64,000 bases of DNA from an uncultured Pseudomonadota bacterium (GCA_902826775.1 CADEHE010000006.1:37238-101237); one strand, 5' to 3'. Positions 532 to 51,465 are shown, numbered from the stretch's first letter. Notes: generated by a model from the letters alone, not told the origin. Program-made: numbers and translations.

Positions 532-1752
532 TTAGCGTACCAACTGGTTTATCTCAAAAATCGGCTGCAGAATCGCAAGCACGATCAACAATACTACACC
601 GCCCATGAACAGAATCATTAGGGGTCCAACAAGCGAGGTCAAGACCGAGACGCGGTTCTCCACTTCCATGGTCTGCGTGCTCGCCACGCGATCCAGCATT
701 TCGTCCAGCTTGCCGCTGGATTCGCCGCTGGCGATCAGATGCACCATCACCGGCGGGAAGGTCTTGGTGCTGCCGATGGAGCGGCTCAAGCTCGCGCCCT
801 CACGCACGCGGCGCTCCGTTTCCTCCAATGCGCGCTTCATCGGCAGGTTGTTCACTACGCCGACGCCCGCTTGCAACGCGGTGAGCAGCGGCACGCGGCT
901 GCCGACCAAGATGGCGAGCGTGCTGGCTAAGCGCGCGGTGTTCAGGCCGCGCGTCAAGCGGCCGATGAGCGGCAAGCGCAGCACGAAGCTGTGCCAGCGC
1001 ATGCGCAATGCCGGTTGCTTGATGGCGCGCGAGAACAACCAAAGCCCGGCGACGATGCCGATCAGCCAGTAAATGCCTGTGGCACGCAGAAAGTCGCTCG
1101 CGGCGATCATTGCGCGCGTCAGCAGCGGCAATGTCTGGCGCGTGTTTTCGAATACTTCTATGACTTTTGGCACGACGTAGGTCAGCAAAAACGCGGTCGC
1201 GCCGACCGCGACGCACAACACAATTGCCGGATAGACCAGCGCGAGAATGACCTTCATGCGCAGCGCATGGCGCGCTTCAGTGTAGTCGGCTAAGCGCGTC
1301 ATCACCTGCGCCAGTTGCCCGGATTGCTCGCCGGCATTGACCAGCGTGCGATAAAGATCAGGAAACACATTTGGAAACTGCGCCATGGCGCGCGACAAAG
1401 TTTGTCCGGCGAGCACCTCGCCGCGCACGCCTGCCAACACGTCGCGGCTAAACTGCGATTCGGTTTGCTCGATGAGCGCGTTCATGGTTTGCTCGACCGT
1501 CAAGCCGGCGCCGAGCAGTGTGGCGAACTGGCGCGTCAACAAACTGAGTTCGGCGGCGGCCATGCGCCGGCGCGAGCGGCGCTTGACTGGCTCGCTGGCG
1601 TTGCTGGCGCTCGCGGTGAGGCTTTCGACCTCAATCGCCGTCAGACCTTGATCGCGCAGTGACGCACGCACTTGGCGCGGACTGTCGGTTTCGACTACGC
1701 CCTTGTGCAGTTTGCCTTGGGCGTCTACCGCGTGATAGCGAAATCCGGCCAC
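532..1752 (-). CDS. gspF: Type II secretion system inner-membrane platform protein GspF
   Basis: The ORF track gives 532..1836, but that start overlaps gspE. A GTG at 1750-1752 is preceded by AGGAG and gives VAGFRYHAVDAQGKLHKG..., a typical GspF N-terminus. Two GspF repeats and three TM segments are visible. Confidence 0.9.
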   Translation of the reverse strand: MAGFRYHAVDAQGKLHKGVVETDSPRQVRASLRDQGLTAIEVESLTASASNASEPVKRRSRRRMAAAELSLLTRQFATLLGAGLTVEQTMNALIEQTESQFSRDVLAGVRGEVLAGQTLSRAMAQFPNVFPDLYRTLVNAGEQSGQLAQVMTRLADYTEARHALRMKVILALVYPAIVLCVAVGATAFLLTYVVPKVIEVFENTRQTLPLLTRAMIAASDFLRATGIYWLIGIVAGLWLFSRAIKQPALRMRWHSFVLRLPLIGRLTRGLNTARLASTLAILVGSRVPLLTALQAGVGVVNNLPMKRALEETERRVREGASLSRSIGSTKTFPPVMVHLIASGESSGKLDEMLDRVASTQTMEVENRVSVLTSLVGPLMILFMGGVVLLIVLAILQPIFEINQLVR

Positions 1753-1768
1753 GGCAGGGTCTCCTCGA

Positions 1769-3274
1769 CTAGCCTCGAGTGACGCGCAACACTTCTTCGA
1801 ACGTGGTGACGCCTTCGGCCACCCAGCGCAAGCCATCGCCGCGCAGCGTCGACATGCCGCGTCTGGTGGCGTACTGGCGTAGCTGCGCCTCGGAGACCGT
1901 GTCGTGGATCATGCGGCGTACTTCGTCGTCGACCGTGAGCAATTCGTAAATTCCAGTGCGCCCCTGATATCCGGTCCAATTGCAGGCGGCGCAGCCGACC
2001 GCGGCGTAGATCACCTCGGGCACCGGCCCGCCGTTGAATGCTGCGCGTTCGGCCGCATCGGGCGCGTGCTCCTTGCGGCATGCCGTGCAAACCCGCCGCA
2101 CCAAACGCTGCGCCTGAACGCCCAGCAAGCTGGATGCGAGCAAGAACGGTTCCACGCCCATGTCGACCAGGCGCGTGATCGCGCCGGCCGAATCGTTGGT
2201 ATGCAGCGTCGCGAGCACGAGGTGGCCGGTCAAGCTCGCTTGCACTGCGATTTGCGCCGTCTCTAAATCGCGGATTTCGCCGATCATGATGACATCCGGG
2301 TCCTGCCGCAGAATGGCGCGCAGCGCGCGCGCGAAAGTCATTTCGATGCGCGCGTTGACTTGTGTCTGGCCGATGCCGTCGAGGTCGTACTCGATCGGAT
2401 CTTCCACTGTCATCATGTTGAGTTGCGTCGCATCCAAGCGCGACAGCGCGGCGTACAGCGTGGTGGTCTTGCCGGACCCCGTTGGCCCGGTGACCAGCAC
2501 GATGCCGTGCGGCTGCTGTATCAGAAGATCGAGTTGACGCAGCGCTTCGGGGTTCATGCCGAGGCTGTCGAGTTGCAGGCGCCCGGCTTGTTTGTCGAGC
2601 AAGCGCAGCACCACGCGCTCGCCGTGGCCGGTGGGTAAAGTCGACACGCGTACGTCGACGGGCCGCCCGGCCAAGCGCAACGTGATGCGTCCGTCTTGCG
2701 GCAAGCGCTTCTCTGCGATGTCGAGCTGCGCCATGATCTTGATGCGCGATACCAACGCCGCATGCAGCGCACGCGGCGGTTCCAGCACATCGCGCAGCGC
2801 GCCGTCGACGCGCAGGCGCACCACCGAGCGCGTCTCAAACGCTTCGAGATGAATGTCAGAAGCGTTCGCGCGCAAGGCTTGCGTCAGCAGCGCGTTAATT
2901 AGGCGAATGATGGGCGCGTCGTCCTCGGATTCGAGCAGATCGGTGATCTGAGGCAGCTCTTGCGCGAGCTGATTGAGGTCGATGTCTTGGCCGATATCGC
3001 CGATAAGTTGCTGCGCGGCGTTGTCGCTGCGCGAGTACACCTGGCCTAACAGTTGAGCGAAGCGCTCTTCCTGCACCACGATAGGATGCAGCGGACGGCG
3101 CAACAACCTGCGCACTTCTGCGAGCGAATTCGGATCCAAATCCGGTTTTACCCAGATCTCGATACCGGCGTTGGTATCGCGCGCGGCGATGATGCCCTTG
3201 GCTTTTGCGAAGTGATAAGGGATCTGCCGCGAGATGTGCGGGTCGGGTGCGCTCAACAGGTCAGCGCTGGCCAT
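1769..3274 (-). CDS. gspE: Type II secretion ATPase GspE
   Basis: 501 aa. Walker A GPTGSGKTTT, Asp/His boxes, C-terminal tetracysteine (CTACR...CAAC) and an N1E-like N-terminus. Confidence 0.95.
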   Translation of the reverse strand: MASADLLSAPDPHISRQIPYHFAKAKGIIAARDTNAGIEIWVKPDLDPNSLAEVRRLLRRPLHPIVVQEERFAQLLGQVYSRSDNAAQQLIGDIGQDIDLNQLAQELPQITDLLESEDDAPIIRLINALLTQALRANASDIHLEAFETRSVVRLRVDGALRDVLEPPRALHAALVSRIKIMAQLDIAEKRLPQDGRITLRLAGRPVDVRVSTLPTGHGERVVLRLLDKQAGRLQLDSLGMNPEALRQLDLLIQQPHGIVLVTGPTGSGKTTTLYAALSRLDATQLNMMTVEDPIEYDLDGIGQTQVNARIEMTFARALRAILRQDPDVIMIGEIRDLETAQIAVQASLTGHLVLATLHTNDSAGAITRLVDMGVEPFLLASSLLGVQAQRLVRRVCTACRKEHAPDAAERAAFNGGPVPEVIYAAVGCAACNWTGYQGRTGIYELLTVDDEVRRMIHDTVSEAQLRQYATRRGMSTLRGDGLRWVAEGVTTFEEVLRVTRG

Positions 3275-5636
3275 GGCGTCTCGACCTTTGCCGCTCTGGT
3301 TTCTTCGCTGCCGGCTTGGCGGACTTGGCCTTCGCCGCCGCGGGGGCTGTTTCGCTAGCGGACGTAGTCGCGGGCGCTTTGGGCGCCGACAGCATCAAGT
3401 TATCAGAGAAGCCGCCGCCGCTCGGCGTAGCCGCGCCCGGCAGCAATTCGCGCGGCTGCGTTGGATCGGTGGCGGGTTGTGTCGAAGCGGCGGGGGCTTG
3501 CTCACTCTCATCGCCGAGGCGGCGCGACATTGCCAAAGACGCGGGATCCCGCGGTGCTGGCCCGGCCTGCGGCTTAACGGCGTCGGGTTTGATTTGCGCA
3601 GCCAACCTTGGCCCGAACAGCGGGTCGAGCTGCGGCAATTGCGGCGTCTCCATATTCGGCAACAACCAATGATCGGGCACGCGCCCCTTGGCTTGTTCGT
3701 TGCGGATGTAGTCGTAGCGCTCGTTGGTGATCGGGCCAGGGGAGAGATTGTCGCGCAAGACAATCGGACGCAGGAAAACCATGAGATTGGTTTTCTTGCG
3801 CTGGCGCGTTTCATATTTGAACAGATTACCCAGAATCGGGATGCTGCCGAGCCCGGGGACCTGATCGCGCCGGTTCTGCACGTCGTCTTGAATCAAACCG
3901 CCGAGCACGACAGTCTGCTGGTCATCCACCAGAACGGTTGATTCGATCGAGCGCTTGTTGGTCACGACGTCGGCGGTCGAAACGCCGGCGGCCCCAGTCA
4001 AGCTGGAAACTTCCTGGAAGATTTTCAGTTTAACAGTGCCGCCCTCAGCCACTTGCGGGGTCACCCGCAACGTCAAGCCGACGTCGCGCCGCTCTATGGT
4101 TTGGAATGGGTTGACCCCGGCACCGGTGGTTTGCGTTTGTGAGAAGCTACCGGTCACGAACGGCACGTTTTGACCGACCACGATCTTGGCTTCCTCGTTA
4201 TCGACGGTGAGCAAGTTTGGCGTCGACAAAATGTTGGTGTTCGCGCGTGACTCGAGCGCGCGCGCGAGCATGCCCAGATTGAGCACTTCGCCGACGCCCG
4301 GGATGCTGATTCGTCCTTTAACCACGCCGATGTTCAGTCCGGCGCCGACGTTGGCCAAATTGCCCGAGGTCGAGATGATGTTGTTGCCGCGGCCCGCGGT
4401 GCTGAAATTGGTGCCGCCGATCGCGGTCAAGTTATTGTCGGCCGCTCCAGATAAATCTTGCCACTGCACACCGAACTCCGCCGCTTGGTCGGTGGATACT
4501 TCCGCGATTAACGCTTCAATGAATACTTGCGCGCGCCGTGCATCGAGCTTTTCGATGACGGCGCGAATGCTGTTGTAAACGTAGTCCGGCGCCGTAATGA
4601 CCAGCGAGTTGGTGGAGGGATGCGCTTGTATGCTGCCACCGCCGGACGAGGCGGGGATGCTGATCGATGGCACCGGCCCCGCCGTGGCGGGCTGACCCGG
4701 CTGGCCCGGTACCGGCTGCGGCGTGGATACGACGGGACTCGCTGCACCGCCGCCGCCGCTACTGGCGCCAAGTATTCCGCGCAGGGTCTCGGCCACCTTG
4801 GCTGCTTCGGCATTGCGCAAATAGATGACGCGGATGTTGCCGCCTTCGGCTGAGGGCACGTCCATGCCCGCAACCAGTTGCTTGACTTTGGCGATCGTTG
4901 CCGGCGTATCGGCGCGCACAATGAGGCCGTTGGTGCGCGAGTCGACGGCGAACACGAGTTTCGGCAGGCCGCCGGGAACCGCAGTGGGCGCCGAAGCTTC
5001 GGGCATCAAGCGCGACAACAGCTGGGAGATGTCTTGCGCCGAGGCGTGCTCAAGCTTGATGAGTTGTATCTCCGCGGAGGAAGCCACGTCAATGGAGCTA
5101 ATGATCTTATCGATGCGGCGCAAGTTTTCCGCATAGTCGGTGATGACCAGCGTGTTGCTGTTCGGATAGGCGTTGATAACGTTGTTTGGGGCGATAAGCG
5201 GGCGCAGCACCGGCACCAGTTGTACCGCCGATTCGTGCTTCAAGGTGTAAACCTGAGTAACGATGCGGTCGCCACCTGCGGGGCTCTTGCCGCCGGTCGG
5301 GCTGTAGGTGAGTTTGGCGTCAGCCTCCGGCAGAACCTTGACTACGCCGTTACTGCTCTCGATCGCGGTAAAACCCTGCATGCGCAATGCTGACAGCAAC
5401 ACCGGGTAGACCAAATCGCGCTGCACCGGATTCGCCGAGATGATGTTGATGGTGCCGGTGACGCGCGGATCGAGAATGAAATTCTTGCCGGTTATCATGC
5501 CGATGGTCTTGATCACCGAACGAATATCCGCGCCGTCGAAATTCAGAATCACGGTGTCCGGTTCCTGGGCAGGGCGCGCGGCGAAACAGGTAGCCGCGAG
5601 AAGTAAGGCAAGGGCAATGCGCTTGGCAAACAGCAT
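3261..5636 (-). CDS. gspD: Type II secretion secretin GspD with a long low-complexity C-terminal tail
   Basis: 791 aa. Signal peptide, N0-N3 domains (ILNFDGADIRSVIKTIG...) and secretin core (VLGGLI...PGLGSIPILGNLF). Overlaps the gspE start by 14 nt. Confidence 0.93.
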   Translation of the reverse strand: MLFAKRIALALLLAATCFAARPAQEPDTVILNFDGADIRSVIKTIGMITGKNFILDPRVTGTINIISANPVQRDLVYPVLLSALRMQGFTAIESSNGVVKVLPEADAKLTYSPTGGKSPAGGDRIVTQVYTLKHESAVQLVPVLRPLIAPNNVINAYPNSNTLVITDYAENLRRIDKIISSIDVASSAEIQLIKLEHASAQDISQLLSRLMPEASAPTAVPGGLPKLVFAVDSRTNGLIVRADTPATIAKVKQLVAGMDVPSAEGGNIRVIYLRNAEAAKVAETLRGILGASSGGGGAASPVVSTPQPVPGQPGQPATAGPVPSISIPASSGGGSIQAHPSTNSLVITAPDYVYNSIRAVIEKLDARRAQVFIEALIAEVSTDQAAEFGVQWQDLSGAADNNLTAIGGTNFSTAGRGNNIISTSGNLANVGAGLNIGVVKGRISIPGVGEVLNLGMLARALESRANTNILSTPNLLTVDNEEAKIVVGQNVPFVTGSFSQTQTTGAGVNPFQTIERRDVGLTLRVTPQVAEGGTVKLKIFQEVSSLTGAAGVSTADVVTNKRSIESTVLVDDQQTVVLGGLIQDDVQNRRDQVPGLGSIPILGNLFKYETRQRKKTNLMVFLRPIVLRDNLSPGPITNERYDYIRNEQAKGRVPDHWLLPNMETPQLPQLDPLFGPRLAAQIKPDAVKPQAGPAPRDPASLAMSRRLGDESEQAPAASTQPATDPTQPRELLPGAATPSGGGFSDNLMLSAPKAPATTSASETAPAAAKAKSAKPAAKKPERQRSRRHGQR

Positions 5637-5647
5637 GGGTTGGACCC

Positions 5648-6556
5648 TTATTGTTGGACGTTGTAAGTTAACTGCAATGGTCGTCCCGCGCGCGTGCCGG
5701 AAATGTTGACGCGTTCGGTATCGTCAAATTCTTGATAGAGCCGCATCAGATCGGCGGGCGAATTGACCGCTTGGCCGTTGACTTGCCTGACCACGTCGCC
5801 CAGCTGCAGCCCAAGCCGTTCGGCCAAACTGCCGGGCGGCACTTCTTCGATGGACACGCCGCCGCCGGGTGCGGTGCCGACGCGGCCTAGGTTCGACAGC
5901 TGCGCTGTGTCTTGCAGGGCGTTTTGCAGTTGATTGCGCGAAAAGCTCAAGACATTGGGGGCAACCGGCTGCACATTTAAGCGGAACTGCGGCGATGCGG
6001 CCTGCGGCATGTTCTGCGGCTGCCCCAGCGCAGCGGGTTGCGGTCCGCTGCCCCCGGCTGGGTACTGCGGGAAGGAAACTTTCTCCTGCGCACCGCCTCG
6101 ATTGATGATGACGTGGTCGCCGAATACACCTTGCAGCATGACGCCGGGCATCAGCTGGTCGCCGACGCGAAAGCCGAGTTCCTTGCCGTCGACGATCAGG
6201 ATGGCATGAGCCAAGGCGGCGCCCTGCTCGGCGAAAACGCCTTTGAGTTGAACGTTAAGCGTGGTCGGCACGACGACTTGCTGCTGCACCGGCGCGGGCG
6301 CATTGGCGTCGCCGAATAGGCCGGTTACGTTTCCGGGATCGAAGCTCACCGCCGCGCTTACAGGCGCGGCGACCGGCGGTGGCACGGCTTTGGGTTGCAG
6401 GAAATACCAAATCCACTGCGCCAGCAGCCAGCAGAAATACACCAGCAGCGCGAGTGTGAGCAATGTCGGCCAGCGCCGCGCGAACCAACCGCGCCCGCCC
6501 TGCAGCGCAGAGCCGGCAAGCGCGGCGCGGCGCTGTGAAAGATCTAGTGCGGCCAT
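5648..6556 (-). CDS. gspC: Type II secretion protein GspC (TM anchor, HR domain, C-terminal PDZ)
   Basis: Start chosen at MAALDLSQRR. One TM segment (WPTLLTLALLVYFCWLLAQWIWYF). HR-like region (LQLKGVFAEQG...HVIINRGG). PDZ (GVSIEEVPPGSLAERLGLQLGDVVRQVNGQAV). Lies 11 nt upstream of gspD. Confidence 0.75.
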   Translation of the reverse strand: MAALDLSQRRAALAGSALQGGRGWFARRWPTLLTLALLVYFCWLLAQWIWYFLQPKAVPPPVAAPVSAAVSFDPGNVTGLFGDANAPAPVQQQVVVPTTLNVQLKGVFAEQGAALAHAILIVDGKELGFRVGDQLMPGVMLQGVFGDHVIINRGGAQEKVSFPQYPAGGSGPQPAALGQPQNMPQAASPQFRLNVQPVAPNVLSFSRNQLQNALQDTAQLSNLGRVGTAPGGGVSIEEVPPGSLAERLGLQLGDVVRQVNGQAVNSPADLMRLYQEFDDTERVNISGTRAGRPLQLTYNVQQ

Positions 6557-6681
6557 AACCGGGAAAAGCTCTCGCGGTGCGTTGCATGCATCCAGTAGAG
6601 ACCGTGCTTCGTATAAGAGGTTGCAGTGCGCTGGCGTTCGGCGCCGGCCATGTTCCCGCAATCAACTTCTGGAGAGTGTCT

Positions 6682-8205
6682 ATGCATACGACGAAGCAAC
6701 TGAAGTATCCGTTGACCTGGTGCGCAGCCGCACTGCTGCTGGGCGCCGGAATACAAGCACCGCCTGGCCAAGCAGCAAGCCACCGGGAGGCGCCGTTCAT
6801 CACTACCATCCCGAAAGTGGATGGCACCGATTTCTACATGTTTCGCAGTTACGAACCTGGCCGCCAAGACTTCGTTACCTTCATCGCTAACTATCAGCCT
6901 TTCCAGACGGCCTACGGCGGGCCGAATTTCTTCACGCTCGACCCCAACGCGCTTTATGAAATCCACGTGGATAACAACGGCGACGCGAAAGAGGATCTAA
7001 CGTTCCAATTCCGCTTCAAAGTGGAACAGCGCGATATCGCTTTGGATATCGGCGGCAAGCGCGTCGCCGTGCCGTTGGTCAATGTCGGGCAGATCACGCA
7101 GCCCGATCCTAGCGCATCTATTTTGAATGTTCGTGAAACTTACAGCGTCAACGTAGTGCGTGACGGCCGGCGCAATGTTGGCAAGCGCCAAGCGCTCACG
7201 CATGCCACTTCCGGCGCCAGCGAATTTCTCAAGCCGGTCGACAACATCGGGGCCAAATCGATTCCAAACTACGCTCAGTATGCCTCGCAACATGTCTACC
7301 CTATTAACATACCAGGCTGTGCCCAACAAGGTAAAGTGTTCGTGGGGCAGCGCAAGGAATCATTTTACGTAAATCTAGGCGAGGCATTCGACCTAATCAA
7401 CCTGAACCCCTTGGGCGGGCGCAATGCCGAGCCCAACATCTTGGGTGATGACAATATCACGAGCCTAGCCCTTGAGGTTCCAATTGCTTGCCTGACTAAG
7501 GGGAACGATCCGGTTATCGGCGCTTGGACCACGGCCTCGCTGCGCCAAGCGCGACTGCTCGACCCGAGCCCTCGCGCCACCAGCGACGGCGCTTCACGCG
7601 AGGGCGGCGCGTGGACTCAGGTTTCGCGCTTGGGCATGCCACTGGTGAACGAGTTGGTGATTGGCCTAAAGGACAAGAATCGCTTTAACCACAGCAAGCC
7701 AGCCAGTGACGGGCAGTTCTTGGACTACGTTACCAACCCGACGCTGCCGGCGCTAATCCAGGTGTTGTTCAATGTTCCGCCACCGGCTACGCCGCGTAAC
7801 GACCTCGTGACAGCCTTTCTCACCGGCGTGCCTAACGTCAACAAACCTGCGCAAGTGGTCCCGGCAGAGATGTTGCGCCTGAACACGGCGATACCGGCCA
7901 CTGCAGCCGCGCAGCAGAACGATTTGGGTGCGTTGCAGTGCTTCCTCAATGGCGCGCTAACGCTTAGCAATCCGGGTTGTGATGCGGCAGGATTTCCCAA
8001 CGGCCGCCGTCCGATCGACGACGTGACCGACATCACCTTGCGCGTCGCCGAGGGGATCTTGCTGCCTGGACACCTGGTTGCCATCGAAAACCTTACCGAT
8101 GGCGCACAACTGCCCGGTGCAGCGGGCGGGGCCGGCGCAAGCCAGGATTTCGGCACCGGTTTCCCGTATCTGAACGCGCCGATCGCCGCTTCGCCGGCCA
8201 ATTGA
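6682..8205 (+). CDS. Secreted DUF4331 family protein
   Basis: ATG at 6682 after GGAGAG. A signal peptide is followed by the mature N-terminus SHREAPFIT, which I recognise as the DUF4331 hallmark. About 507 aa. Confidence 0.85.
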   Translation: MHTTKQLKYPLTWCAAALLLGAGIQAPPGQAASHREAPFITTIPKVDGTDFYMFRSYEPGRQDFVTFIANYQPFQTAYGGPNFFTLDPNALYEIHVDNNGDAKEDLTFQFRFKVEQRDIALDIGGKRVAVPLVNVGQITQPDPSASILNVRETYSVNVVRDGRRNVGKRQALTHATSGASEFLKPVDNIGAKSIPNYAQYASQHVYPINIPGCAQQGKVFVGQRKESFYVNLGEAFDLINLNPLGGRNAEPNILGDDNITSLALEVPIACLTKGNDPVIGAWTTASLRQARLLDPSPRATSDGASREGGAWTQVSRLGMPLVNELVIGLKDKNRFNHSKPASDGQFLDYVTNPTLPALIQVLFNVPPPATPRNDLVTAFLTGVPNVNKPAQVVPAEMLRLNTAIPATAAAQQNDLGALQCFLNGALTLSNPGCDAAGFPNGRRPIDDVTDITLRVAEGILLPGHLVAIENLTDGAQLPGAAGGAGASQDFGTGFPYLNAPIAASPAN

Positions 8206-8477: not shown

Positions 8478-8522
8478 CAAGGAAGGTTGAACGTAAAGTT
8501 CAACCTTCCTTGTGTTGTGTTG
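8478..8522 (+). terminator. Strong hairpin plus U-rich tract between the lipoprotein and TPR genes (terminator or attenuator)
   Basis: Perfect 15-bp stem CAAGGAAGGTTGAAC / GTTCAACCTTCCTTG with loop GTAAA, followed by TGTTGTGTTG. Flanked by the direct repeat TGTTGTGTTGC. Confidence 0.6.
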
Positions 8523-8556
8523 CGCTATTTGCCGCCACTGCTGGCTAGAGTCGACC

Positions 8557-10238: not shown

Positions 10239-10627
10239 AGGTAGATAGAGACAACTTGTTGGTCATATAGCGCATTTGGCACAGCGCCGGTGCGCGCTTA
10301 AGGCCTACTGCAATATGGGCCCGAGCGGCGCGACTAAGTGCCTTATAGTAAACGAGTAAACGCGCTTTCGCCTTTTTGCCAAAACACTATCGGGCGAGGA
10401 AACAGTGATATCATAACTTGGCATGTAGTGTGCCTCGGGGCAAAAGTCGCGTGGCACGCTACGTCTCGCATCTACTCCTGCCGCAACGATCTGGAGGAGT
10501 TCAACGCTTCTTGGGCAAGTCACGCAACTCGGTGAGGCGCCTTGGGTCACAGCTTATTTTTATGTAGTCGCAATGAAGCAATTGAGGTTGTGGGGTTCTA
10601 AGAGGTAAACCAAAAGGAGAAACTAGG

Positions 10628-17534: not shown

Positions 17535-18362
17535 CTACCCTTGCAGGCGTCGGTACGTGTTCAAGTGCTTGAGTGCTTCGCGAGCAAGACCCTCGCGCTG
17601 ATAGAGCAGCGCCAAATTGTAGTGTGCGTCCGCCATATCGGGCGCGAGCTTAAGCGCTTGGCGATATGCTAGCGCCGCATCCTTGGCGCGGTTCTGGTCA
17701 TCCAATAGCACGCCGAGATTGAACAAGAGCAGCGCGTTTGGCTCGCAGTACTGCAGTGCGGACCGATAGGTGCGCTCGGCAGCGGCAAATTGTCTTTGCG
17801 CATGCTGCAGGCGGCCAAGATTGACATAGGCATTGGTGTGCGCACGATCGAGTTCGATCGCGTTTCGATAGGCGGTAGCCGCGCCTTGGACATCGCTTTC
17901 TTCCAGTTCGCAGCCGTAATCAAACAAACTTTGCGCGCTTTGCAGTGGCGCCAGCTCGTTGCGCGCTGAGACAATAAAGCTCACCGAGCCGGCGCTCGGC
18001 GTGACTTCAAAATCAAGCAAGAACTGCCCCGAATCCGGCTGCCATTGCGCGCCGCCTTGGCGCACCACTAAACGCTCGCGGCTGCGGCTGCCCGCCGCGC
18101 TGATGCGCAATCCGCCGAGCGGCAATTGAGCCGGCAATTGTTGGCGCAAGGTTTTGAGCGATGCCGCGATACGCTCGCTGCTCATATTGCTGAAGGCCAA
18201 CTCGCGCGCAGCTTTAAGCGTGACCAAATCTTGAAACGAGAAACGCAATTCGCGGCGCTTACCGCGCGTGGGCATGACAAAGCCGGCCTTGACCATGCCG
18301 GCGACCACGCTGCGCGAAACGCCGAGCATGCGCTGCACGTCTTCGACGCTGTAGCCGCTCAT
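17535..18362 (-). CDS. MerR/excisionase-type HTH protein with C-terminal TPR domain
   Basis: 275 aa. N-terminal YSVEDVQRMLGVSRSVVAGMVKAGF (HTH). C-terminal TPRs (AYRNAIELD...YVNLGRL...). Starts 21 nt after the ku stop on the same strand. Confidence 0.75.
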   Translation of the reverse strand: MSGYSVEDVQRMLGVSRSVVAGMVKAGFVMPTRGKRRELRFSFQDLVTLKAARELAFSNMSSERIAASLKTLRQQLPAQLPLGGLRISAAGSRSRERLVVRQGGAQWQPDSGQFLLDFEVTPSAGSVSFIVSARNELAPLQSAQSLFDYGCELEESDVQGAATAYRNAIELDRAHTNAYVNLGRLQHAQRQFAAAERTYRSALQYCEPNALLLFNLGVLLDDQNRAKDAALAYRQALKLAPDMADAHYNLALLYQREGLAREALKHLNTYRRLQG

Positions 18363-18383: not shown

Positions 18384-19286
18384 TTACTTCTTGCCGGCTT
18401 TAGCGCGTTCCTTTGCGGGAGCCTTTGCTGAATCGGCTTGCGGCACGCGCTTCGGCGGTTTGCGTTGAGATGCACTCGCGCCGGATTGCGGCTCGGCCGG
18501 CACGCGCGCCCCCGATTTCGCCAAGCTGGCGCGCAGCGCCTGCATCAAGTCGATCACTTGCGCTCCGCCGCTTTCGGGTTCCGCACTGGTGGCCACTTCC
18601 TGGCCTGCGATCTTGCGCTGCACTGCTGCCTCGATGCGCTGCTTTACCGCGTCTTCGTAGGCGTTGGGATCAAACGATTCGGCCGCGTGCTGTTCGATGA
18701 GCTGCACCGCCAAATTCAGTTCGGCGCTCTTAACGTCCGCCTTTTCGACCTCGATTTCCGCCAGTTTGCGCACTTCGTCCGCGTACAAAAGCTGCTGCAG
18801 TACCAAACCACCTTCGACCGGTCGCAGCTGCACGACGTACTGCTTGCCGCGTGACGCCCAGCGCCCCAGCGCACAGCGTCCTGTCGCGCGCATGCCTTCG
18901 GTGAGCAGCGCATAAGGCCGCGCGCCGCCTTTGTCCGGTGCGAGGTAATACGCTTTGTCGTAATAGATTGGATCGATCGACGCCGCCGGCACAAACGCAG
19001 TGATCTCTACCGTGTGCGAGCCCTTTTCTTCCAACTCTTTCAACTCCTCCGGGGCGAAGATCACGTATTGGTCTTTGGCGAACTCATAGCCTTTGACCAT
19101 ATCGGCGCGCTCGACGACGACGCCCTCTTTCGCGCACAGGTATTGCTGTTTGAGGCGAGAGCCGCAGCCCTTGTGCAATAAGTTGAATGAGACGCCGGCG
19201 GAGGCTTGCGTGGCGGAATAGAGCTTGACCGGAATCGATACCAAACCGAACGAAACGGTGACGGAAGCAATGGAGCGCGCAGCCAT
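18384..19286 (-). CDS. ku: Non-homologous end-joining protein Ku
   Basis: 300 aa. SFGLVSIPVKLYSAT... core and a Lys/Ala-rich basic C-terminal tail. Confidence 0.95.
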   Translation of the reverse strand: MAARSIASVTVSFGLVSIPVKLYSATQASAGVSFNLLHKGCGSRLKQQYLCAKEGVVVERADMVKGYEFAKDQYVIFAPEELKELEEKGSHTVEITAFVPAASIDPIYYDKAYYLAPDKGGARPYALLTEGMRATGRCALGRWASRGKQYVVQLRPVEGGLVLQQLLYADEVRKLAEIEVEKADVKSAELNLAVQLIEQHAAESFDPNAYEDAVKQRIEAAVQRKIAGQEVATSAEPESGGAQVIDLMQALRASLAKSGARVPAEPQSGASASQRKPPKRVPQADSAKAPAKERAKAGKK

Positions 19287-19852
19287 AGGCTAGAAACTCG
19301 CTGTCTAGGGCCCTATAGCATATATGGGGGCGGCAGTATGCTCAAGTCTGCGGTAGCCAACTCGTATTCGCCTCCTGGCGGGCGATGCAAATAGGGCACG
19401 CTCACCAGAAGTCTTTGCCCTGGCGCGTTCTGCTGAAACGCGTCGTCCAAAGTCGACCCAAAGTGTTCCTTGCGCGTGAAAGTCTGAACTCGCGGAACGC
19501 CGCGTTAGTTGACGTTAGAATTCTGCGACAAAGTCGGCACGCGATTTGTGGTGCCGACGTTCGCGCGAGCGAGCAAGGATCGCCTAAACCCGACTTCCGA
19601 GCTTAACCCAGCGTCACTTTTCTGCAGTTCGCCAGCGAACCTGGGAAAGAGCAAAGATACGAAGCGTGCGCTTCAAGACAGACGCACCGACTGCATGGTG
19701 TGCGGCGCATGGCCGTCGCTCAAATTATGAAAGCCAGGACGCTAACGGGCGTAATGTCTCCCGCAACCGAGCCCCGCCACACAGGTTGGCGGAGGTTTGA
19801 CTATGCTCCTGTCCACGCGCTAAATTGAGCCGCCGCGACATCGGAGAAAGTT

Positions 19853-20245
19853 GTGTCTTCGCTTAAGTTCATCGACAAGATACCTGGCCATGCTGAAGCG
19901 CCAGCGTGGATTCTTCAGGTGATGGAATCCACATTGACCGCGCGCGAGATTCTGCGTCGGCGCGTCTATGAAGAGGTGTTGCGCTTTAATGCGCAGCCGA
20001 ACACGGTCTTCCAAGGCTTGATGCAGCCAACCGACACCGAGCGTGTGTTAAATGGCTACAAAATGCGCGAACGACGCCCGCTAGTTTGGCAAGAGCAACT
20101 CGCTCAAGCGGTGCAAGCGTTTGAGCGGCGGGGGTTCCTACTAATTGTTGGCGACCGTCAGGTAGAAAACCTGGACGAAGAACTCACTGTTGCCGCCGAA
20201 ACAGAGGTGACGTTTCTCAAGCTCGTGCCGCTCGTCGGCGGGTAG
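19853..20245 (+). CDS. Hypothetical 130-aa protein ending in ...PLVGG-stop (possible ThiS/MoaD/ubiquitin-like beta-grasp)
   Basis: GTG start 5 nt after GGAGAAA. The C-terminus GFLLIVGDRQVENLDEELTVAAETEVTFLKLVPLVGG is followed by TAG, which directly abuts the ATG of the next gene. GC-rich third positions are consistent with coding. Confidence 0.65.
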   Translation: MSSLKFIDKIPGHAEAPAWILQVMESTLTAREILRRRVYEEVLRFNAQPNTVFQGLMQPTDTERVLNGYKMRERRPLVWQEQLAQAVQAFERRGFLLIVGDRQVENLDEELTVAAETEVTFLKLVPLVGG

Positions 20246-22747
20246 ATGGGCTGGCTCGAGAAGTTGCGCGGCGCGCTGGGCGGCAAAGCCGCTCAGGTTA
20301 CCGAAGATCTTGAAATCAAGGAGCTCGTTCACTCTTATCTGGTCGATCCGGTCGGCGGGGATCAATGGAAGATCGACGTCCGCGCCGTGCGCGCTGGAGC
20401 AGTAATACTGGACTTGCCAGTGGAGCGCGCGAGTGCCGTCATACGCAGTGTGCTGCTCGGCGAGATCTATAACCCCGCCGGCCAACAAGACTGGCTCAGA
20501 CGCAACCGCAGCGAGAAATTGATTTCTGACCTCAGCCGGCGTGCCCTGCAGCTCACGCTGGAGGAAGCGCAGGTGCTGTTGGCCCTGCATGCCGAGGTCC
20601 AGAAACAAACGGACTGGCCGCGTTTCCCCGCATTGCCCAAGGCGATTGCGCGTAGCGCCCAAGACGGTGGCTGGACGGATGCGATCCGTCCGAGCTTTTC
20701 TCAGGTGCGGGAAGCCTTGCTTACCTCCAGATGGGCACAGTACGCGCAAGTGCGCAAGGCCGTCAAAGAGATCGAACTGCTGATCACTGGCGCCGCAAAG
20801 ATTTGCAGTATCGAGTCTGACGCGTGGGGCGACAAGGCGCGTGCCACCCTCGATGTAATGGATGCCGCCACGCGCGAGCGTTGGCAAGCAGTACTCAACT
20901 ACTGCGTCAGCGCTAAGGGCTCGGCCCCCAGTGGCAAGTGGCTCAAAGCAGGTGATGCCGTCGTCGAACAGTTCGGCAAATCCGCTTTCGCCGAACACGC
21001 CTACGCCTGGCTCGACTTGCTGCAAGAGCCGGCGCCAAAACGCGATGATCCTCAAGCGCGCCGGTGGCTGCTGAGCGAATCCAACGGCGATTTGCTCAAG
21101 GGCTTGGTCTGGCTGCTTGTACAAGTACCGGAGGTTGGCAGTGCTGCGGCATTGAGAAACGCGGCCATCGCCGCCTTTCGCAAGATTCCAAACTATGGCG
21201 CGCGCAGCGTCAAAGCCGGCAATGCCTGCCTGCAGGCATTGAAGCTTTTCCCGGGCTTGATCGGCGCCCGCGAGCTCGCGGTGCTGCAAGCCACGTTGAA
21301 GTTGCCCAGTCAAGCTGCGGCGGTAGCCAAAGCATTGACCGAATGCGCCAAGCGCCTGAACTTGAGCCTGGCGGAGATCGACGAACTCGCCACCTCCGAC
21401 CACGGCTTTGCTGACGGGAGGCGCATCCTGCAGTTCGGCGAGTTCAGTGCAGAGCTACGCATCGAGAGCGATGCAGTGCTCGTGGACTGGCGCGATACGG
21501 ACGGCAAGGCGCGCAAGGCCGAGCCAAAACAAGTGAAGAGCGAGTTCGCCGAACCGCGCAAAGCAATGAAACGCTTGATCGCAGACGTCGAGAAGACGCT
21601 GGCCGCCGTGCGCCATCGGCTGGAGCGCTTGCCCCTCGAAACGCGTGAATGGCCGGTCGACACTTGGCAGGAGCGCTACTGCAACCACGCGATCGTCGGC
21701 CCGCTCACCCGTCGGCTCATTTGGCGCTTTCGTGGTGAGAGCGAAAAGGCAGCGCTTTGGCTCGACGGTTGCTGGCGCGATGAATTGGGTGAGCCGGTAG
21801 ACATTGCGGGTACCGCCGTACTGCCATGGCATCCGGTGTTTGCTAGCGCGCAGAGCGTACGCAACTGGCGCGCTGTGCTGTCCAAACACGAAGTCGTGCA
21901 GCCGTTCAAACAGGCACACCGAGAAATCTACTTACTTACCGACGCCGAGCGAAATACCCGAACTTACTCGAATCGGTTTGCTGCCCACGTGTTGCGACAG
22001 CATCAGTTCGCCAGTTTGTGTCTAGCGCGCGGTTGGCGGTATCGGCTGCAGGGCGTTTTCGACTCCCATAACACACCTGTACTTAGATTGCCCCATTGGA
22101 ATCTGGAAGCGGAATTCTGGGTTGACGCCGCGGGCGGTAATCCGGATGCCGGTGCTAGCGCTTCAGGCATCTGGCTTCACGTGATGACCGATCAGGTGCG
22201 GTTTCGGCCGATGCCACGCGAAGGTGCCTCAGCCCTGGAAGCCACTGAAGCGCTTGCGCTCGAGGACGTGCCGCCGATCGTACTGTCCGAAGTCATGCGC
22301 GATGTTGATCTGTTCGTTGGGGTAACCAGCGTGGGCAACGATCCGACCTGGAATGACGGTGGGCCTGACGGTCGCTTCCGACAATACTGGCATGACTACT
22401 CTTTCGGCGCGTTGTCGATCGCGGCAGAAAACCGTGTGCAAATCATTGAGGAGCTGCTGCCGCGCTTGACACTGCGCGATTGTGCTCGCATCGACGGCAA
22501 ATTCCTCGTGGTGCGAGGCCGTCTTCGCACCTACAAGATCCACATCGGCAGCGGCAACATCTTGATGGAGCCGAATGATCAGTACCTCTGCATCGTGGCG
22601 GACCGTTCGCCGCGGCAACCTGATGCGAAGTTGCCATTTGAGGGGGATGGCACGCTTGCGCTGATCCTTTCCAAGGCGTTTCTACTGGCGCGCGACGATC
22701 AAATCCAAGATGCAAGTATTACTCGGCAGATCGGCGTCGGACTGTAA
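20246..22747 (+). CDS. DUF4132 domain protein (MolR/YehI-like) with helical N-terminal half
   Basis: 833 aa. Recognised DUF4132 block (VDWRDTDGKARKAEPKQVK...RLERLPLETREWPVDTWQERYCNHAIVGPLTRRLIWRF...QPFKQAHREIY) and a conserved C-terminal block (RTYKIHIGSGNILMEPNDQYLCIV...LILSKAFLLARDDQI). Confidence 0.88.
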   Translation: MGWLEKLRGALGGKAAQVTEDLEIKELVHSYLVDPVGGDQWKIDVRAVRAGAVILDLPVERASAVIRSVLLGEIYNPAGQQDWLRRNRSEKLISDLSRRALQLTLEEAQVLLALHAEVQKQTDWPRFPALPKAIARSAQDGGWTDAIRPSFSQVREALLTSRWAQYAQVRKAVKEIELLITGAAKICSIESDAWGDKARATLDVMDAATRERWQAVLNYCVSAKGSAPSGKWLKAGDAVVEQFGKSAFAEHAYAWLDLLQEPAPKRDDPQARRWLLSESNGDLLKGLVWLLVQVPEVGSAAALRNAAIAAFRKIPNYGARSVKAGNACLQALKLFPGLIGARELAVLQATLKLPSQAAAVAKALTECAKRLNLSLAEIDELATSDHGFADGRRILQFGEFSAELRIESDAVLVDWRDTDGKARKAEPKQVKSEFAEPRKAMKRLIADVEKTLAAVRHRLERLPLETREWPVDTWQERYCNHAIVGPLTRRLIWRFRGESEKAALWLDGCWRDELGEPVDIAGTAVLPWHPVFASAQSVRNWRAVLSKHEVVQPFKQAHREIYLLTDAERNTRTYSNRFAAHVLRQHQFASLCLARGWRYRLQGVFDSHNTPVLRLPHWNLEAEFWVDAAGGNPDAGASASGIWLHVMTDQVRFRPMPREGASALEATEALALEDVPPIVLSEVMRDVDLFVGVTSVGNDPTWNDGGPDGRFRQYWHDYSFGALSIAAENRVQIIEELLPRLTLRDCARIDGKFLVVRGRLRTYKIHIGSGNILMEPNDQYLCIVADRSPRQPDAKLPFEGDGTLALILSKAFLLARDDQIQDASITRQIGVGL

Positions 22748-22893
22748 TGCGCTAGAGGCAAGACTGGTTTGGCGGCGACGAAAATCGCTAGACCGCTGAC
22801 TCGAAAACGAGATCGACATTCGCACGATCCAACCACCGCCGTTGGCTTTAGGGTGGTCAACCCATGCACTCATTGTGCTTTGGGAACAACTGC

Positions 22894-22940
22894 GCAAACG
22901 GCCGGTGTCTTGTGCAAACGGCCTGCAAACGGCCGGTGTC
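22894..22940. repeat. Direct repeats GCAAACGGCCGGTGTC / GCAAACGGCC / GCAAACGGCCGGTGTC
   Basis: Read directly from the sequence at 22894-22909, 22914-23 and 22925-40, in the spacer between convergent genes. Confidence 0.6.
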
Positions 22941-23198
22941 AGGTCTTGCACTGCAACATATTGCCAGAAATGGGGCCTGCTAGTCAGCAATACACCTGAG
23001 GCAAACGTCAGCTTTGGGCGCGGGATTAATGTCAGCTTTTTTCTTCTCTGGCAGCGACTCGCTGGTATTTTCCGGAAGGTACACAATCAGCGGATTTTGT
23101 AGGCGGCCGGCCACGGACGGAACGGCAGCAATTGGCCGAAAACGAACGTCTGCAACTGCGGAGAGGCTGAAGCACCGTAGGCAGTCGCCGTGAGCGGT

Positions 23199-36792: not shown

Positions 36793-39618
36793 CTAGCGTG
36801 ATCCCAGCGCGGCCTCCAAGCTTTGCTTTTGCATCAAGACATCGCGCCAAACGTCAGGCCGTTCAGTCAAGCGATCGAACACGGTGTCGATAGTGAAATC
36901 GGTTGGATAAGCATGCTCCAATTCCTCCCAGGTGAGCGGCATCGATACCGGGGCGCCAAGCAGGCCGCGCGGCGAGTAAGCGCAATTTAGCGTGCGCGTG
37001 CGCGCGTTCATGTTGTAGTCGATGAAAATCTTTCCGGTGCGCTTGTCGATGCTCCAATCGATGGTGACATCTTTGGGGTAGCGTTGCTGCAGATGGCGGC
37101 TGATCGTTTCGCTGATGCGGCGCACCGCATCGAAATCGAGCGTGCGCACGATCGGCACGAAAATGTGCAAACCGGTCTTGCCCGAGGTTTTGACGAAAGA
37201 GCGCAGTTTCATAGCGGTCAGCACTTCGTTTAGGTGCAGCGCGACCGCCCGGCCCTTGTCGAAGGCGGGGCGGTTGAATTCGGGCTCTTCGCCCTTTGCT
37301 TCTTTCCCAGAGTAAACGTATGGATCGATATCGAACACCAAGTAGTCGGGAAAATTCAGGATCGACGCATCCAGTGTGGCCATCGATCCGATGAACTTGG
37401 TGCTCGCTCCCGAGCGATCGGGCAGGGGATTGATGCGCGAGTGCCAGACATGAAACTCGAGCGCGCCGCTTTGACCGAGCCAAAGCAGCGTCGGCAAATT
37501 GTTGCAGACAAGATAGCGGTGATCGACATCTTTGGTTTCTGAGTACACCGCGACGCTTTCGACGAAGTCGGGCAGCTTCACGCTGTCCCAATGTTTTTGG
37601 AAGAAGCGCTCACCCGTGATGCCGTCGGGCATGCGGATAACGGTCAGTGCGCGGTCCGCCAGGTGCGGCAGCATGTAAGGCGCGATGCGCGCGAGATAGC
37701 ACAGCAGATCGCGCTTGGTGAGCGCGGCGTGCTTGGGCTTCTTCTGCGCTGGCCAGAGCGCCTTGTTGAGATTGGTAACGCGGATTTGATGCGAACCTAT
37801 GCTGAGCGTGCATTCCGTACGCTCATGCGCCAGTTGTTGCAGCACGCTGGCGAGGCGTTGCTGAAGCTGTGCGCTTTCGTTGTGCGCGCCATGCGGGCGC
37901 GGTGTGGGCGCGCCGATCCCGCCCGGATCGACGTCGTCGCGCAAGCGCAGGAATACTGGGGCACGCAATTGTTGCGCCGGCGTGAGTTCGCTGAATTTCA
38001 CTTCGGCGACCAGTTTCGGGCGTACCCAAGTCGCGGGCATGTCTTGCGGCGGAGCTTGCGTAAACGGGCAGCGCTGAGTGATCAAAGGCATCAGCCGTTG
38101 CTTGAGCGTGCGCAGGGTGGCGTCATCGAATCCGGTGCCGACATTGCCGACAAATACCAGTTTGCGCTGCGTATTCCAGTAGCCGAGCAAGAGCGCGCCG
38201 AGTGAGGATTGGCGATGGCCGCTACCCGCTGAATAGCCGCCGATGACAAACTCGGCACTGTGTTGCGTTTTGACTTTACGCCAGTTCGGCGAACGCCGTC
38301 CGCTCTCATACTTGCTCGACTTGTGCTTGGCAACGATGCCTTCCAGGCCGCTGTGCAGCGCTGCCTGATACATGGCGCTGCCATCGGTATCGGCATGAAT
38401 GGATTTGATGTGCCCATTCTCAAGGAGGCACTGCAAAAGGTAGCGCCTGCGCAGCGTGTAAGGCAGGCCGCGCAGATTGCGGCCGGCGAAGTGCAATAGG
38501 TCGAAGCAGTACAGCACGCACGGCGTTGTCCGCTGCGCGGCGTCGATCTCTTGCTTGAGCTTGAGCTGCGCGCGGTTTTGCAGCGCATGGAACGATGGCG
38601 CGCCGTCTTCGAAAGCTACCAACTCGCCATCGAGCAGCATCGTATCCGCAACTTGTTGTTGCAGCGCTAGGGCGATTTCCGGAAATGCCGCGGTGTAGTC
38701 TCGCCCGGTGCGCGAGCGCAATCGCACCCGGCCTTGCTCGATAAAAGCGAGCACGCGGTAGCCGTCGAGCTTGGGTTCGAACAACCAATCCGCATGAGTA
38801 AAGGGCTGCGGCGCGCTGGCCGCGAGCATGGGCGCAAGCTTGGCGGGGAGTTCCTCTCTCTCGCCGTGCACCACCAACTCTTCCAGCGCAACGCGCACCG
38901 GCGCGGGCTGAGTGCGCAGCATTTGCGGCGTGAGCCCGCTCAGTACCGAGCGCGCGTGTTGCTCCGGTGCGGTACCGTGCCAGCGCGTGTCTTTGTGCTT
39001 GATCAGGAGCCAGTTCTTGCCGTCACCTTTGACCGATTGGTCGCCTGTGCGACCGGTGAGAGTTTGGTCGCCTACGCGACCGGTGCGCACCAATGCGAAA
39101 GAGCCTTTCAGTTTTTCGCCCAACAGAAAAAAACTGAGTTTGCCGGCTTCGAGTTCACGCCGCACTCGCGTTTGCGCGGCGTCGCGGTCGTGAAATGCAT
39201 AGACGCCGCCTTCGTCCGGCGAATATACGCCGCAGTCCCACACGATCACCTCGCCCGCGCCGTATTGCTTCGGCGGGATCACGCCTTCGAACGTCGCGTA
39301 CGCCAGCGGATGATCTTCGGTCGGTACCGCTAAACGCTTGTCGGCGTGATCCATGCTCGGTCCCTTCGGCACCGCCCACGATTTCAGCACGCCGTCCAAC
39401 TCTAAGCGCAGATCGAAATGCAGCGCGCGCGCGGCGTGCTGCTGGACGACGAACAGCAGAGGCCCGTCGCGCGGTGCCGGTGGCTGCGGCGGCGGCTCCG
39501 GTGTGCCGCCAAACGAGCGCTTGGCGGCATAGTCGCTGAGCGCGGCGGTGCCGTCGCGCGGTCGCTCGCTGCCGCGCTTGCTAGCCGCAGCGGCGGAAGT
39601 CTGTTTGCGTCCGGCCAT
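36793..39618 (-). CDS. ligD: DNA ligase D (phosphoesterase - ATP-dependent ligase - polymerase/primase)
   Basis: 941 aa. PE domain ([18 protein letters not shown]...WAVPKGPS). Ligase motif I (EPKLDGYR). C-terminal Pol domain (YLVFDIDP...[11 protein letters not shown]). Confidence 0.95.
39037..39090 (-). repeat. In-frame ~27-nt tandem duplication inside ligD (linker TGRVGDQTL / TGRTGDQSV)
   Basis: TTGGTCGCCTGTGCGACCGGTGAGAG followed by TTTGGTCGCCTACGCGACCGGTGCGCAC on the plus strand. Confidence 0.6.
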
Positions 39619-51245: not shown

Positions 51246-51465
51246 GCGTTCCCCTTTTTGTGGCCGACGGACGGCAGCGGCCAAGACCTCGATGTCGGCC
51301 GAGATTTGAAACAGTGGTGGGATGGCAAGCGGGGGAAGTGTTTTTCTGCGCGCCTGTCTACAGCGCGGCTAGGGTGCCGAAAGCCCTGGCGACTGTCAAG
51401 TTACATTTTTGCGACGGCTATAGTGGCGCGTTGCGAGGGGGCGACTACATCAGTAGCGGCCGCGC

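Follow-up and report, generated by a model that had tools for sequence, protein, structure and literature searches.

Within a 64,000-nucleotide stretch of DNA from an uncultured Pseudomonadota bacterium (GCA_902826775.1 CADEHE010000006.1:37238-101237), referred to below as the window, two open reading frames (ORFs) follow each other directly on the plus strand (Table 1), namely a gene for a small protein of 130 amino acids (aa), here called Ubl for ubiquitin-like, and a gene for an 833-aa protein with a DUF4132 and a DUF7737 domain, here called the partner. The Ubl protein ends in ...TEVTFLKLVPLVGG, the last stretch of which is FLKLVPLVGG; its two terminal glycines are encoded by GGC (20237-20239) and GGG (20240-20242), and the following TAG (20243-20245) abuts the ATG of the partner ORF, which runs in the same frame from 20246 to 22747. 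This arrangement had been put forward in a first-pass annotation of the window, and the GTG at 19853, the GGAGAAA sequence, the 130-aa ORF and the TAG set directly against the ATG were all recovered with the same coordinates and sequence. The general picture to which the present analysis leads is that the module is real, relies on the Gly-Gly end of Ubl and is linked to DNA damage, for which we estimate a probability of about 0.8; for the more specific proposal that Ubl would act as a carrier whose tail is used covalently by the partner as an enzyme, the odds are about even.

A two-gene unit with a free Gly-Gly end

The Ubl protein of the window matches nothing in Pfam, NCBIfam and PADLOC and has no sequence match in the PDB. 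A search of 5.8 billion proteins in a 90%-clustered database nevertheless returned 1,120 homologues at E ≤ 1e-3, all of about 130 aa, of which the few named ones are called hypothetical, apart from a single JGI record whose label, MukB, is an evident mis-annotation. At the same threshold, 2,219 clusters at 50% identity emerged when 1.84 billion cluster representatives were searched exhaustively with a profile, and relatives were present in at least 510 species when one genome per species was scanned. The taxa concerned include Streptomyces, Micromonospora and other Actinobacteria, Armatimonadota, Verrucomicrobiota, Chloroflexota (Ktedonobacter), Deinococcota, Gemmatimonadota, Cyanobacteria and Gammaproteobacteria, with an identity of about 50% across phyla. 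Because homologues, clusters and species are this numerous, the Ubl ORF corresponds to a real gene rather than to a chance ORF, and Ubl is a new, unannotated protein family.

The hallmark of this family is its C-terminus. Of the 120 best-matching homologues 119 close with Gly-Gly, as do 144 of the 150 diverse representatives and 63 of the 64 copies from metagenomes; the few that deviate resemble truncated or frameshifted gene calls, and in the cluster search the last position of the Ubl profile is the last protein residue almost everywhere. The terminal Gly-Gly without extension, on which the first-pass annotation had based its idea of a ubiquitin-like protein or sulfur carrier, thus holds well beyond the window. 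The alignment identifies F121, L124, P126, L127, G129 and G130 as invariant. Sixteen different codon pairs are in use for the Gly-Gly, and therefore selection operates on the amino acids. One apparent DUF4132-...-Ubl fusion was encountered in metagenomic data (P0190, 969 aa); its middle part is rich in Arg, Pro and Gly and frameshift-like, and in all likelihood it is an artefact of sequencing or gene calling by which a partner gene was joined to the Ubl gene following it.

The association of the two genes is equally regular. A partner homologue lies directly downstream and on the same strand in 76 of the 80 genome loci with Ubl, two of which (L018 and L045) hold partner fragments only; as for the four loci without partner, the contigs of two (L023 and L024) end too soon after Ubl, the other two being L020 and L065. 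Taken in the reverse direction, i.e., from metagenome loci found via the DUF4132/DUF7737 half, the Ubl gene is upstream in 64 of the 65 evaluable cases. Measured from the Ubl stop, the partner start falls within -1 to +8 nt in 71 of 72 loci, 47 being TGATG overlaps, and the full range of spacing is -1 to +43 nt. As such, both the synteny with DUF4132 and the coupled translation, which had been deduced from the abutting stop and start of the window copy, extend to other genomes, and the two genes are passed on and translated together. At the Gly-Gly codons, GGTGG and GGAGG are over-represented (148 loci), even in genomes of high GC content, in which GGT and GGA are scarce; the Gly-Gly codons probably double as a Shine-Dalgarno sequence or reinitiation aid for the partner gene. 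In a metagenome-assembled genome of the Verrucomicrobiia (L015), two full Ubl copies (8480-8869 and 10001-10390) and a partial one (11162-11326) precede a single partner gene, the only multi-copy case in 148 loci.

Beyond the pair itself, nothing is conserved in the neighbourhood. When neighbours were clustered from a greedy non-overlapping gene set covering diverse phyla (loci from 17 lineages), only the Ubl and partner families recurred across phyla; genes for an activating enzyme (E1), a conjugating enzyme (E2), a JAB protein, molybdenum-cofactor (Moco) functions, Ku or LigD did not recur beside the module. No known sulfur-acceptor enzyme (MoaE, ThiG, CysM, TtuA) is a neighbour, the sole conserved neighbour of Ubl being the partner, and no JAB/MPN or other deconjugating peptidase was detected among the conserved neighbours or, by Pfam, in the partner. 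The closest relatives of the window module (about 70% identity) have entirely different neighbours. As pointed out by the first-pass annotation, the window does contain ku as well as molybdoenzyme, XdhC and MocA genes on the flanks of the module; since neither Ku or LigD nor molybdoenzyme (MoCoBD, aldehyde-oxidase), XdhC or MocA genes lie near the module in 164 other loci, this adjacency is an accident of the present genome. In Deinococcus pimensis (L087, 1-5863), a gene cluster of RNA-repair type lies directly upstream of the module on the opposite strand, with domains of a Hen1 methyltransferase, an RNA ligase, an HD + AAA_33 kinase-like protein and Thg1.

Predicted fold of Ubl and architecture of the partner

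The AlphaFold2 model of Ubl, built from a 50-sequence alignment (predicted local distance difference test, pLDDT, 79; predicted template-modelling score, pTM, 0.74), comprises in order strands at residues 2-9 and 19-23, a helix at 30-47, the insert (48-94), three further strands (96-99, 110-112, 116-122) and a tail. The conserved insert of 45 residues contains two short helices and the motif GLVQPxDxExxLNGY. At residues 128-130 the pLDDT falls below 50, which fits a flexible tail. The best Foldseek matches in the PDB are all beta-grasp proteins, i.e., the UBL of Mpe1, human MOCS2A and bacterial MoaD, staphylococcal SSL/Eap domains, ubiquitin and UBL domains, with a probability of up to 1.0 and a target-normalised TM-score of up to 0.67. 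Model topology and structural matches hence agree on the beta-grasp fold expected by the first-pass annotation, with the reservation on E-values given below. Likewise, an independent published structure prediction for the Deinococcus radiodurans member matches 5MPO, 3PO0 (SAMP1) and other MoaD structures (PMC9650054). Among 50 members, Pfam Urm1 gave a sub-threshold match in one (E 0.14). Ubl is accordingly modelled as a protein that works like the beta-grasp proteins of MoaD/ThiS/Ubl type, and by sequence it is not a member of the ThiS family PF02597.

The first-pass annotation was right in assigning the large protein to DUF4132 and had missed a second domain. Pfam places DUF4132 (PF13569) at aa 420-597 over the full model length (E 8.6e-43) and DUF7737 at aa 727-829 (E 1.4e-37), and the same two domains, and no others, are found in seven longer orthologues; Pfam scans of partner sub-fragments and of every alignment member gave nothing beyond these two. 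In the AlphaFold2 model (16 sequences, pLDDT 76), an N-terminal alpha-solenoid precedes DUF4132, and an acidic region, modelled with low confidence at aa 691-727, leads to DUF7737. The solenoid is variable in length, the partner orthologues ranging from 830 to 1,626 aa. The C-terminal 450 residues, on the contrary, rank with the best conserved stretches of the two proteins, and the basic DUF7737 domain displays the motifs YKIH.GSGN....PND.YLCIV and LPFEGD....ILSKA.LLA. In this domain, an invariant His766 (22541-22543) stands 16 residues before Cys782 (22589-22591), the sole invariant cysteine of the whole partner. It can be argued that so many invariant polar residues in the C-terminal half speak for an active site and against a passive scaffold. 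Rhodanese, pyridoxal-phosphate (PLP) and PP-loop domains as well as iron-sulfur cysteine clusters were not detected in the partner by the Pfam scans, and a faint TCAD3 match (E 0.1) appeared in two members of the partner alignment. The layout of DUF7737, i.e., a helix, a beta-meander bearing His...Cys and two helices, is reminiscent of a UBC/E2 core, as a lead only; profile-profile comparison (hhalign) with five E2 sequences gave a probability below 1%.

Table 1. Features of the Ubl-partner locus and of its surroundings in the window.
Feature	Position	Strand	Basis or remark
Sigma-70-like promoter candidate, TTGACT-18 nt-TAAATT	19797..19826	+	Only promoter-like site in 19200-23300; shuffled sequence also gives one
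Shine-Dalgarno sequence GGAGAAA	19843..19849	+	3 nt 5' of the GTG; read from sequence
Ubl gene (130-aa MoaD-like beta-grasp protein as modelled, new family)	19853..20245	+	GTG start; read from sequence
Near-invariant tail codons KLVPLVGG, free Gly-Gly end	20219..20242	+	Alignment, variety of codon pairs, low pLDDT of tail
TAG/ATG junction, translational coupling	20243..20248	+	Stop abuts start without gap; seen in sequence
Partner gene, 833 aa (solenoid, DUF4132, acidic linker, DUF7737)	20246..22747	+	Pfam, AlphaFold2 model
HEAT/ARM-like alpha-solenoid, about aa 20-385	20303..21400	+	All-helical model; best Foldseek matches armadillo/HEAT proteins; low conservation
DUF4132 domain, aa 420-597, basic	21503..22036	+	Median isoelectric point (pI) 9.4; invariant QPFKQAHRE.Y.LT.AE..T..YSNRFAAH..RQHQ
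Acidic middle region, aa 601-726	22046..22423	+	Median pI 4.3; invariant SE..RDVDLFVGV.S.G.DP.W.DGG
DUF7737 domain, aa 727-829	22424..22732	+	Helix, five-strand meander, two helices; Pfam, model
Weak terminator-like hairpin and T-run	23048..23075	+	Between module and convergent amidase gene; such sites in the region no commoner than in shuffled sequence
Type II secretion cluster GspC, D, E, F	532..6661	-	
DUF4331 protein gene	6577..8205	+	
MerR-HTH + TPR protein gene	17535..18362		Starts 21 nt downstream of ku
ku	18384..19286	-	
LigD gene, full-length	36793..39618	-	3'-phosphoesterase, ligase and primase-polymerase domains
Gene for a 1,213-aa protein	47640..51284	-	Middle domain hydrazine-synthase-alpha-like

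Damage-response promoters and the Deinococcus radiodurans pair

In Actinobacteria, the motif tGTCRG-N10-TAN3T ends 6-11 nt 5' of the Ubl start in 64 of 68 loci, the other four having mostly degenerate versions of it; against this, there are 6 occurrences of the pattern in the 2.6 Mb that flank the loci, i.e., 1.8e-4 per 80 nt. It is the in vivo consensus of PafBC (PMC8635444), the activator of the LexA-independent DNA-damage response of mycobacteria and other actinobacteria, at whose promoters a -26 element replaces the -35 contact (PMC8635444, PMC6789036). A motif ending this close to the start codon implies a leaderless transcript. The module is predicted to be a new member of the PafBC regulon.

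In Deinococcota, a 17-bp palindrome of RDRM type (radiation/desiccation response motif), unique in each locus, lies 12-20 nt 5' of the Ubl start at three loci (L035, L086 and L087), reading TTATGCTAAGAACATAA in Meiothermus, TTACGCTATAGACGTAA in D. malanensis and TTACGCTGTGAGCGTAA in D. pimensis. In D. radiodurans itself, DR_A0165 (164459-164863) abuts DR_A0166 (164864-169744, DUF4132, 1,626 aa). The DR_A0165 C-terminus (83 residues from PMC9650054, ...VFVDDEQVETLDETVALQPDSTLLLLRLTALAGG), which ends ...LTALAGG, scores 38 bits against the family hidden Markov model, the best of 1,000 shuffles reaching 8 bits, and by this score DR_A0165 is a true member of the Ubl family. A search for the Deinococcus copy on plasmids gave four unrelated replicons only.

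For this pair, experimental data have been published. Its RDRM (TTATGTAAATAGCATAA) lies under a DdrO ChIP-seq (chromatin immunoprecipitation sequencing) peak, the pair is induced on DdrO depletion, the DRA0166 protein increases after mitomycin C in an IrrE-dependent manner, and the Moco genes of D. radiodurans are not co-regulated with the operon (PMC8533742). The DR_A0165 protein, under the name SEP068184, increases after gamma irradiation and H2O2, binds thioredoxin, and was described as a Deinococcus-only small peptide modulating antioxidant capacity (PMC9650054); that restriction to Deinococcus conflicts with the wide family membership found here.

The same operon is thus captured by two unrelated damage regulons, by way of activation in the one phylum and repression in the other, and with a PafBC promoter in Actinobacteria and a DdrO operator in Deinococcota it belongs to the genotoxic-stress response in these phyla. 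The first-pass annotation had considered a role in DNA repair or stress on account of the ku gene; this particular argument falls, the adjacency being peculiar to the one genome, and the link to damage stands on the promoter motifs of other phyla and on the D. radiodurans data instead. As to the window copy, the layout TTGAC(T/C)-N17/18-TAxxxT of its promoter candidate is also seen upstream in the closest relatives L171 and L173. With a plain sigma-70-like candidate and a ku neighbour that is non-conserved, damage regulation in this organism is unproven.

LexA boxes, sought with gamma/beta- and alpha-proteobacterial, Gram-positive and cyanobacterial patterns, are absent upstream in the window and non-recurrent elsewhere. 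Isolated, unverified candidates were noted at L005, L039, L078 and L172. Both L005 and L039 belong to Armatimonadota: in the former, CGAACATATATTCG lies about 60-75 nt upstream of Ubl beside a TATAAT and resembles a LexA box of Gram-positive type, and in the latter, a perfect 16-bp palindrome (GAGTTCTCGAGAACTC) lies about 28-44 nt upstream of Ubl. Both sites could be SOS operators, which would then occur in a third phylum.

Regarding the remainder of the window, ku and the full-length LigD gene are 17 kb apart and form a split pair for non-homologous end joining; ku is probably in one operon with the gene for a protein with a MerR-type helix-turn-helix (HTH) and tetratricopeptide repeats (TPR). 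Genes for YhdP, GlnE and a TRAP transporter are also present, besides those listed in Table 1; taken with the type II secretion genes, they mark the source as a Gram-negative proteobacterium.

Proposed mechanism and comparison with known systems

In the carrier-enzyme mechanism, Ubl and the partner would form a complex of about 1:1 of the MoaD-MoaE or ThiS-ThiG kind, in which the flexible VPLVGG tail would reach the C-terminal module of the partner near His766 and Cys782. The terminal glycine would be activated in the partner, or earlier by a housekeeping E1 of MoeB/ThiF/MoeZ type encoded elsewhere, and would then be used covalently, either as a thiocarboxylate donating sulfur or as an acyl group passed via Cys782; the variable solenoid may serve to pick the target.

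Several points weigh against this proposal or against the general picture behind it. First, no E1 is linked to the operon, whether by the scan of the window or by the survey of conserved neighbours: the first-pass annotation had stated that E1, E2 and JAB genes are missing from the window, which is true of all scanned ORFs of 150 aa or more, and no ThiF-like Pfam match occurs among these ORFs. Activation of the glycine is therefore an assumption. CysO, TtuB and the archaeal SAMPs borrow a housekeeping E1. The missing operon E1 cannot separate a thiocarboxylate role, conjugation and simple binding. Second, the Foldseek E-values for Ubl are weak (0.017 or above), which is attributed to the 45-residue insert, and Pfam ThiS (PF02597) is not matched, the best E-value being 0.11 and such hits being limited to 2 of 50 members. 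Third, the C-terminal half of the partner has no sequence or profile match in the PDB (phmmer, 30-sequence profile), and Foldseek with the full-length model retrieved from PDB and BFVD matches of solenoid type only. Fourth, the actinobacterial loci are mutually related, so that 64 of 68 does not represent 64 independent events, and neither LexA nor PafBC nor RDRM motifs were found upstream of the window Ubl. Finally, deletion of DR_A0165 raises survival of H2O2 and has a modest effect under gamma or UV irradiation (PMC9650054), which does not fit a simple repair function and warns that the system may modulate the response rather than repair. The same study reports no RDRM upstream of DR_A0165, in contradiction with PMC8533742; the three other Deinococcota loci with an RDRM favour the latter.

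There are other explanations. In the first, Ubl would be purely a sulfur carrier, thiocarboxylated by an E1 of MoeB/MoeZ/ThiF type, and the partner a new sulfur-inserting enzyme whose induction would follow genotoxic or oxidative stress. MoaD/MOCS2A are the structures nearest to the Ubl model, the tail EVxFLKLVPLVGG is like the C-terminus of MoaD/ThiS, a few members have weak ThiS/Urm1 matches, and tight coupling to one downstream enzyme gene is the pattern of MoaD-MoaE and ThiS-ThiG; an E1 encoded elsewhere has precedents in CysO and TtuB. To our knowledge, however, no sulfur-containing product is tied to DNA damage. The partner moreover contains no detectable sulfur-chemistry domain and one invariant cysteine only, and Ubl is conserved over its whole length, at the level across phyla given above, far more than is typical of ThiS/MoaD. 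The thioredoxin binding of the D. radiodurans member and its effect on H2O2 survival (PMC9650054) would again suit this explanation, which we regard as possible, on the doubtful side.

A second explanation, in our view unlikely, is conjugation, in which Ubl would be attached via its terminal glycine to proteins or other targets at lesions, DUF7737 being E2-like or a ligase through Cys782 and His766. Besides the invariant Gly-Gly end, this could account for the position of His766 and of the sole invariant cysteine at the end of a helix-flanked, UBC-core-like beta-meander; the MoaD-like archaeal SAMPs and Thermus TtuB conjugate with an E1 only, and induction by damage would parallel the modification of eukaryotic PCNA. 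On the other side stand the profile-profile probability below 1% against the five E2 sequences, the lack of an E1 or JAB/deubiquitinase (DUB) gene in the operon and of any PADLOC match, as well as the 1:1 coupling, better suited to a complex than to a tag in excess. Every bacterial Ubl conjugation operon described, as far as we know, has an E1 or JAB/DUB gene. Less likely still is a more definite version, i.e., a damage-induced modification shared by bacteria of many phyla, in which Ubl would be loaded on Cys782 of an E2-like or ligase DUF7737 and passed to proteins or nucleic-acid ends at lesions, with the solenoid selecting the target, as a counterpart of PCNA ubiquitination and sumoylation.

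Ubl might also be a non-covalent regulatory subunit, the tail of which would plug a pocket of the partner and switch it without any chemistry at the glycine. The obligate, coupled pairing and a Ubl surface conserved as a whole, 45-residue insert included, are in line with this, and the gain in H2O2 resistance on deletion in D. radiodurans (PMC9650054) would fit an inhibitory role. A Gly-Gly at the very end, without extension in any of more than 300 sequences, is, however, the hallmark of C-terminal activation, and mere binding would accept other small residues or an extension, which makes such a subunit rather improbable.

Anti-phage defence is suggested by the existence of bacterial Ubl defence systems, by the analogy with the Escherichia coli WGR-DUF4132 genes beside MoxR-VWA-SWIM genes, by a patchy phyletic spread with proteins highly similar across phyla, and by the faint TCAD3 matches. 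PADLOC nevertheless assigns neither protein to a family, the module is essentially absent from IMG/VR (2.9 million viral contigs), its GC content (0.598 vs 0.608 in the window) is not that of an island, no defence genes recur beside it, and it is a single-copy chromosomal pair behind damage-response promoters, so that defence is very unlikely. A Moco-related role, which the first-pass annotation held conceivable, has in its favour the molybdoenzyme genes flanking the module, the MolR name and the MoaD-like fold; it is highly improbable, there being no MoCoBD, XdhC, MocA or aldehyde-oxidase homologue near the module in the 164 other loci, different neighbours even in the closest relatives, and no co-regulation of Moco genes in D. 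radiodurans (PMC8533742). That the Gly-Gly would be kept at the DNA level only, GGNGG being a Shine-Dalgarno sequence for the partner gene, is barely credible in spite of the excess of GGTGG and GGAGG at the junction, high-GC genomes included, given the 16 codon pairs with such poor Shine-Dalgarno matches as the GGCGGG of the window, the equally invariant preceding residues FxKLxPL and a spacing to the start codon of up to +43 nt.

DUF4132 is a widespread domain without an assigned function, which goes under the misleading label of molybdate metabolism regulator. From it a large and uniform subfamily (solenoid, DUF4132 and DUF7737) can now be split off, which gains an obligate partner and a genotoxic-stress context, that partner being a Ubl with the Gly-Gly signature of chemically activated C-termini that is present in the genetically tractable Streptomyces, Micromonospora and Deinococcus. 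If the covalent chemistry proves true, the carrier-enzyme pair would be new in either case, as an enzyme of sulfur transfer or as a minimal conjugation system for Ubl that is tied to DNA damage. In the literature searched, no description was found of the family-wide Ubl-DUF4132/DUF7737 module, of its invariant Gly-Gly or of its PafBC and DdrO promoters. The module had been surmised to be undescribed, which applies to the family, the Gly-Gly end and the pairing, all hitherto unrecognised, and does not apply to DR_A0165, a member studied alone (PMC9650054). The published membership of DR_A0165-DR_A0166 in the DdrO regulon is supported, and the Deinococcus small peptide is recast as one half of a conserved system.

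When compared with known systems, the module is like MoaD-MoaE and ThiS-ThiG in having a small beta-grasp protein with a flexible Gly-Gly tail, the gene of which is coupled to that of one downstream partner. Unlike them, Ubl has 130 aa with a 45-residue insert and no PF02597 match, the partner is unrelated to MoaE, ThiG or CysM, and the operon is damage-regulated, outside a cofactor pathway and without a linked E1. With SAMPs/UbaA and TtuB/TtuC, dual sulfur carriers and protein modifiers whose E1 is shared and encoded elsewhere and which need no dedicated E2 or E3, it has in common a MoaD-like Gly-Gly protein, and SAMP1 (3PO0) is one of the top matches by structure of the D. radiodurans member (PMC9650054); SAMPs and TtuB, however, have no obligate large partner gene, and conjugation and thiocarboxylation are proposals in the case of Ubl. 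The E1-E2-JAB operons of the Bil/Bub-type defence systems and of CBASS Cap2/Cap3 are similarly compact and contain a beta-grasp protein with a terminal glycine, whereas the present operon is devoid of an E1, a recognisable E2, a JAB gene, a PADLOC match and an association with phages, and belongs to DNA-damage regulons.

The first-pass annotation had named E. coli MolR as the best-known member of DUF4132. MolR/YehI shares DUF4132 (PF13569), and MolR has been reported to be regulated by DNA damage through LexA (cited in PMC8533742), but it stands on a different, WGR-associated branch of DUF4132: the yehF-yehH-yehI locus has a WGR protein, MoxR-VWA-SWIM neighbours (to yehQ) and no Ubl gene, the window partner and its seven longer orthologues show no WGR match, and YehI is 24% identical to the window partner over aa 361-575, with no similarity detected beyond aa 575 and hence none over the DUF7737 region. 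DR_A0165/DR_A0166 differs from the window pair by a more divergent insert in its Ubl and a partner twice as long (1,626 aa); it has the same two-gene layout, with the stop abutting the start, and is stress-induced by experiment.

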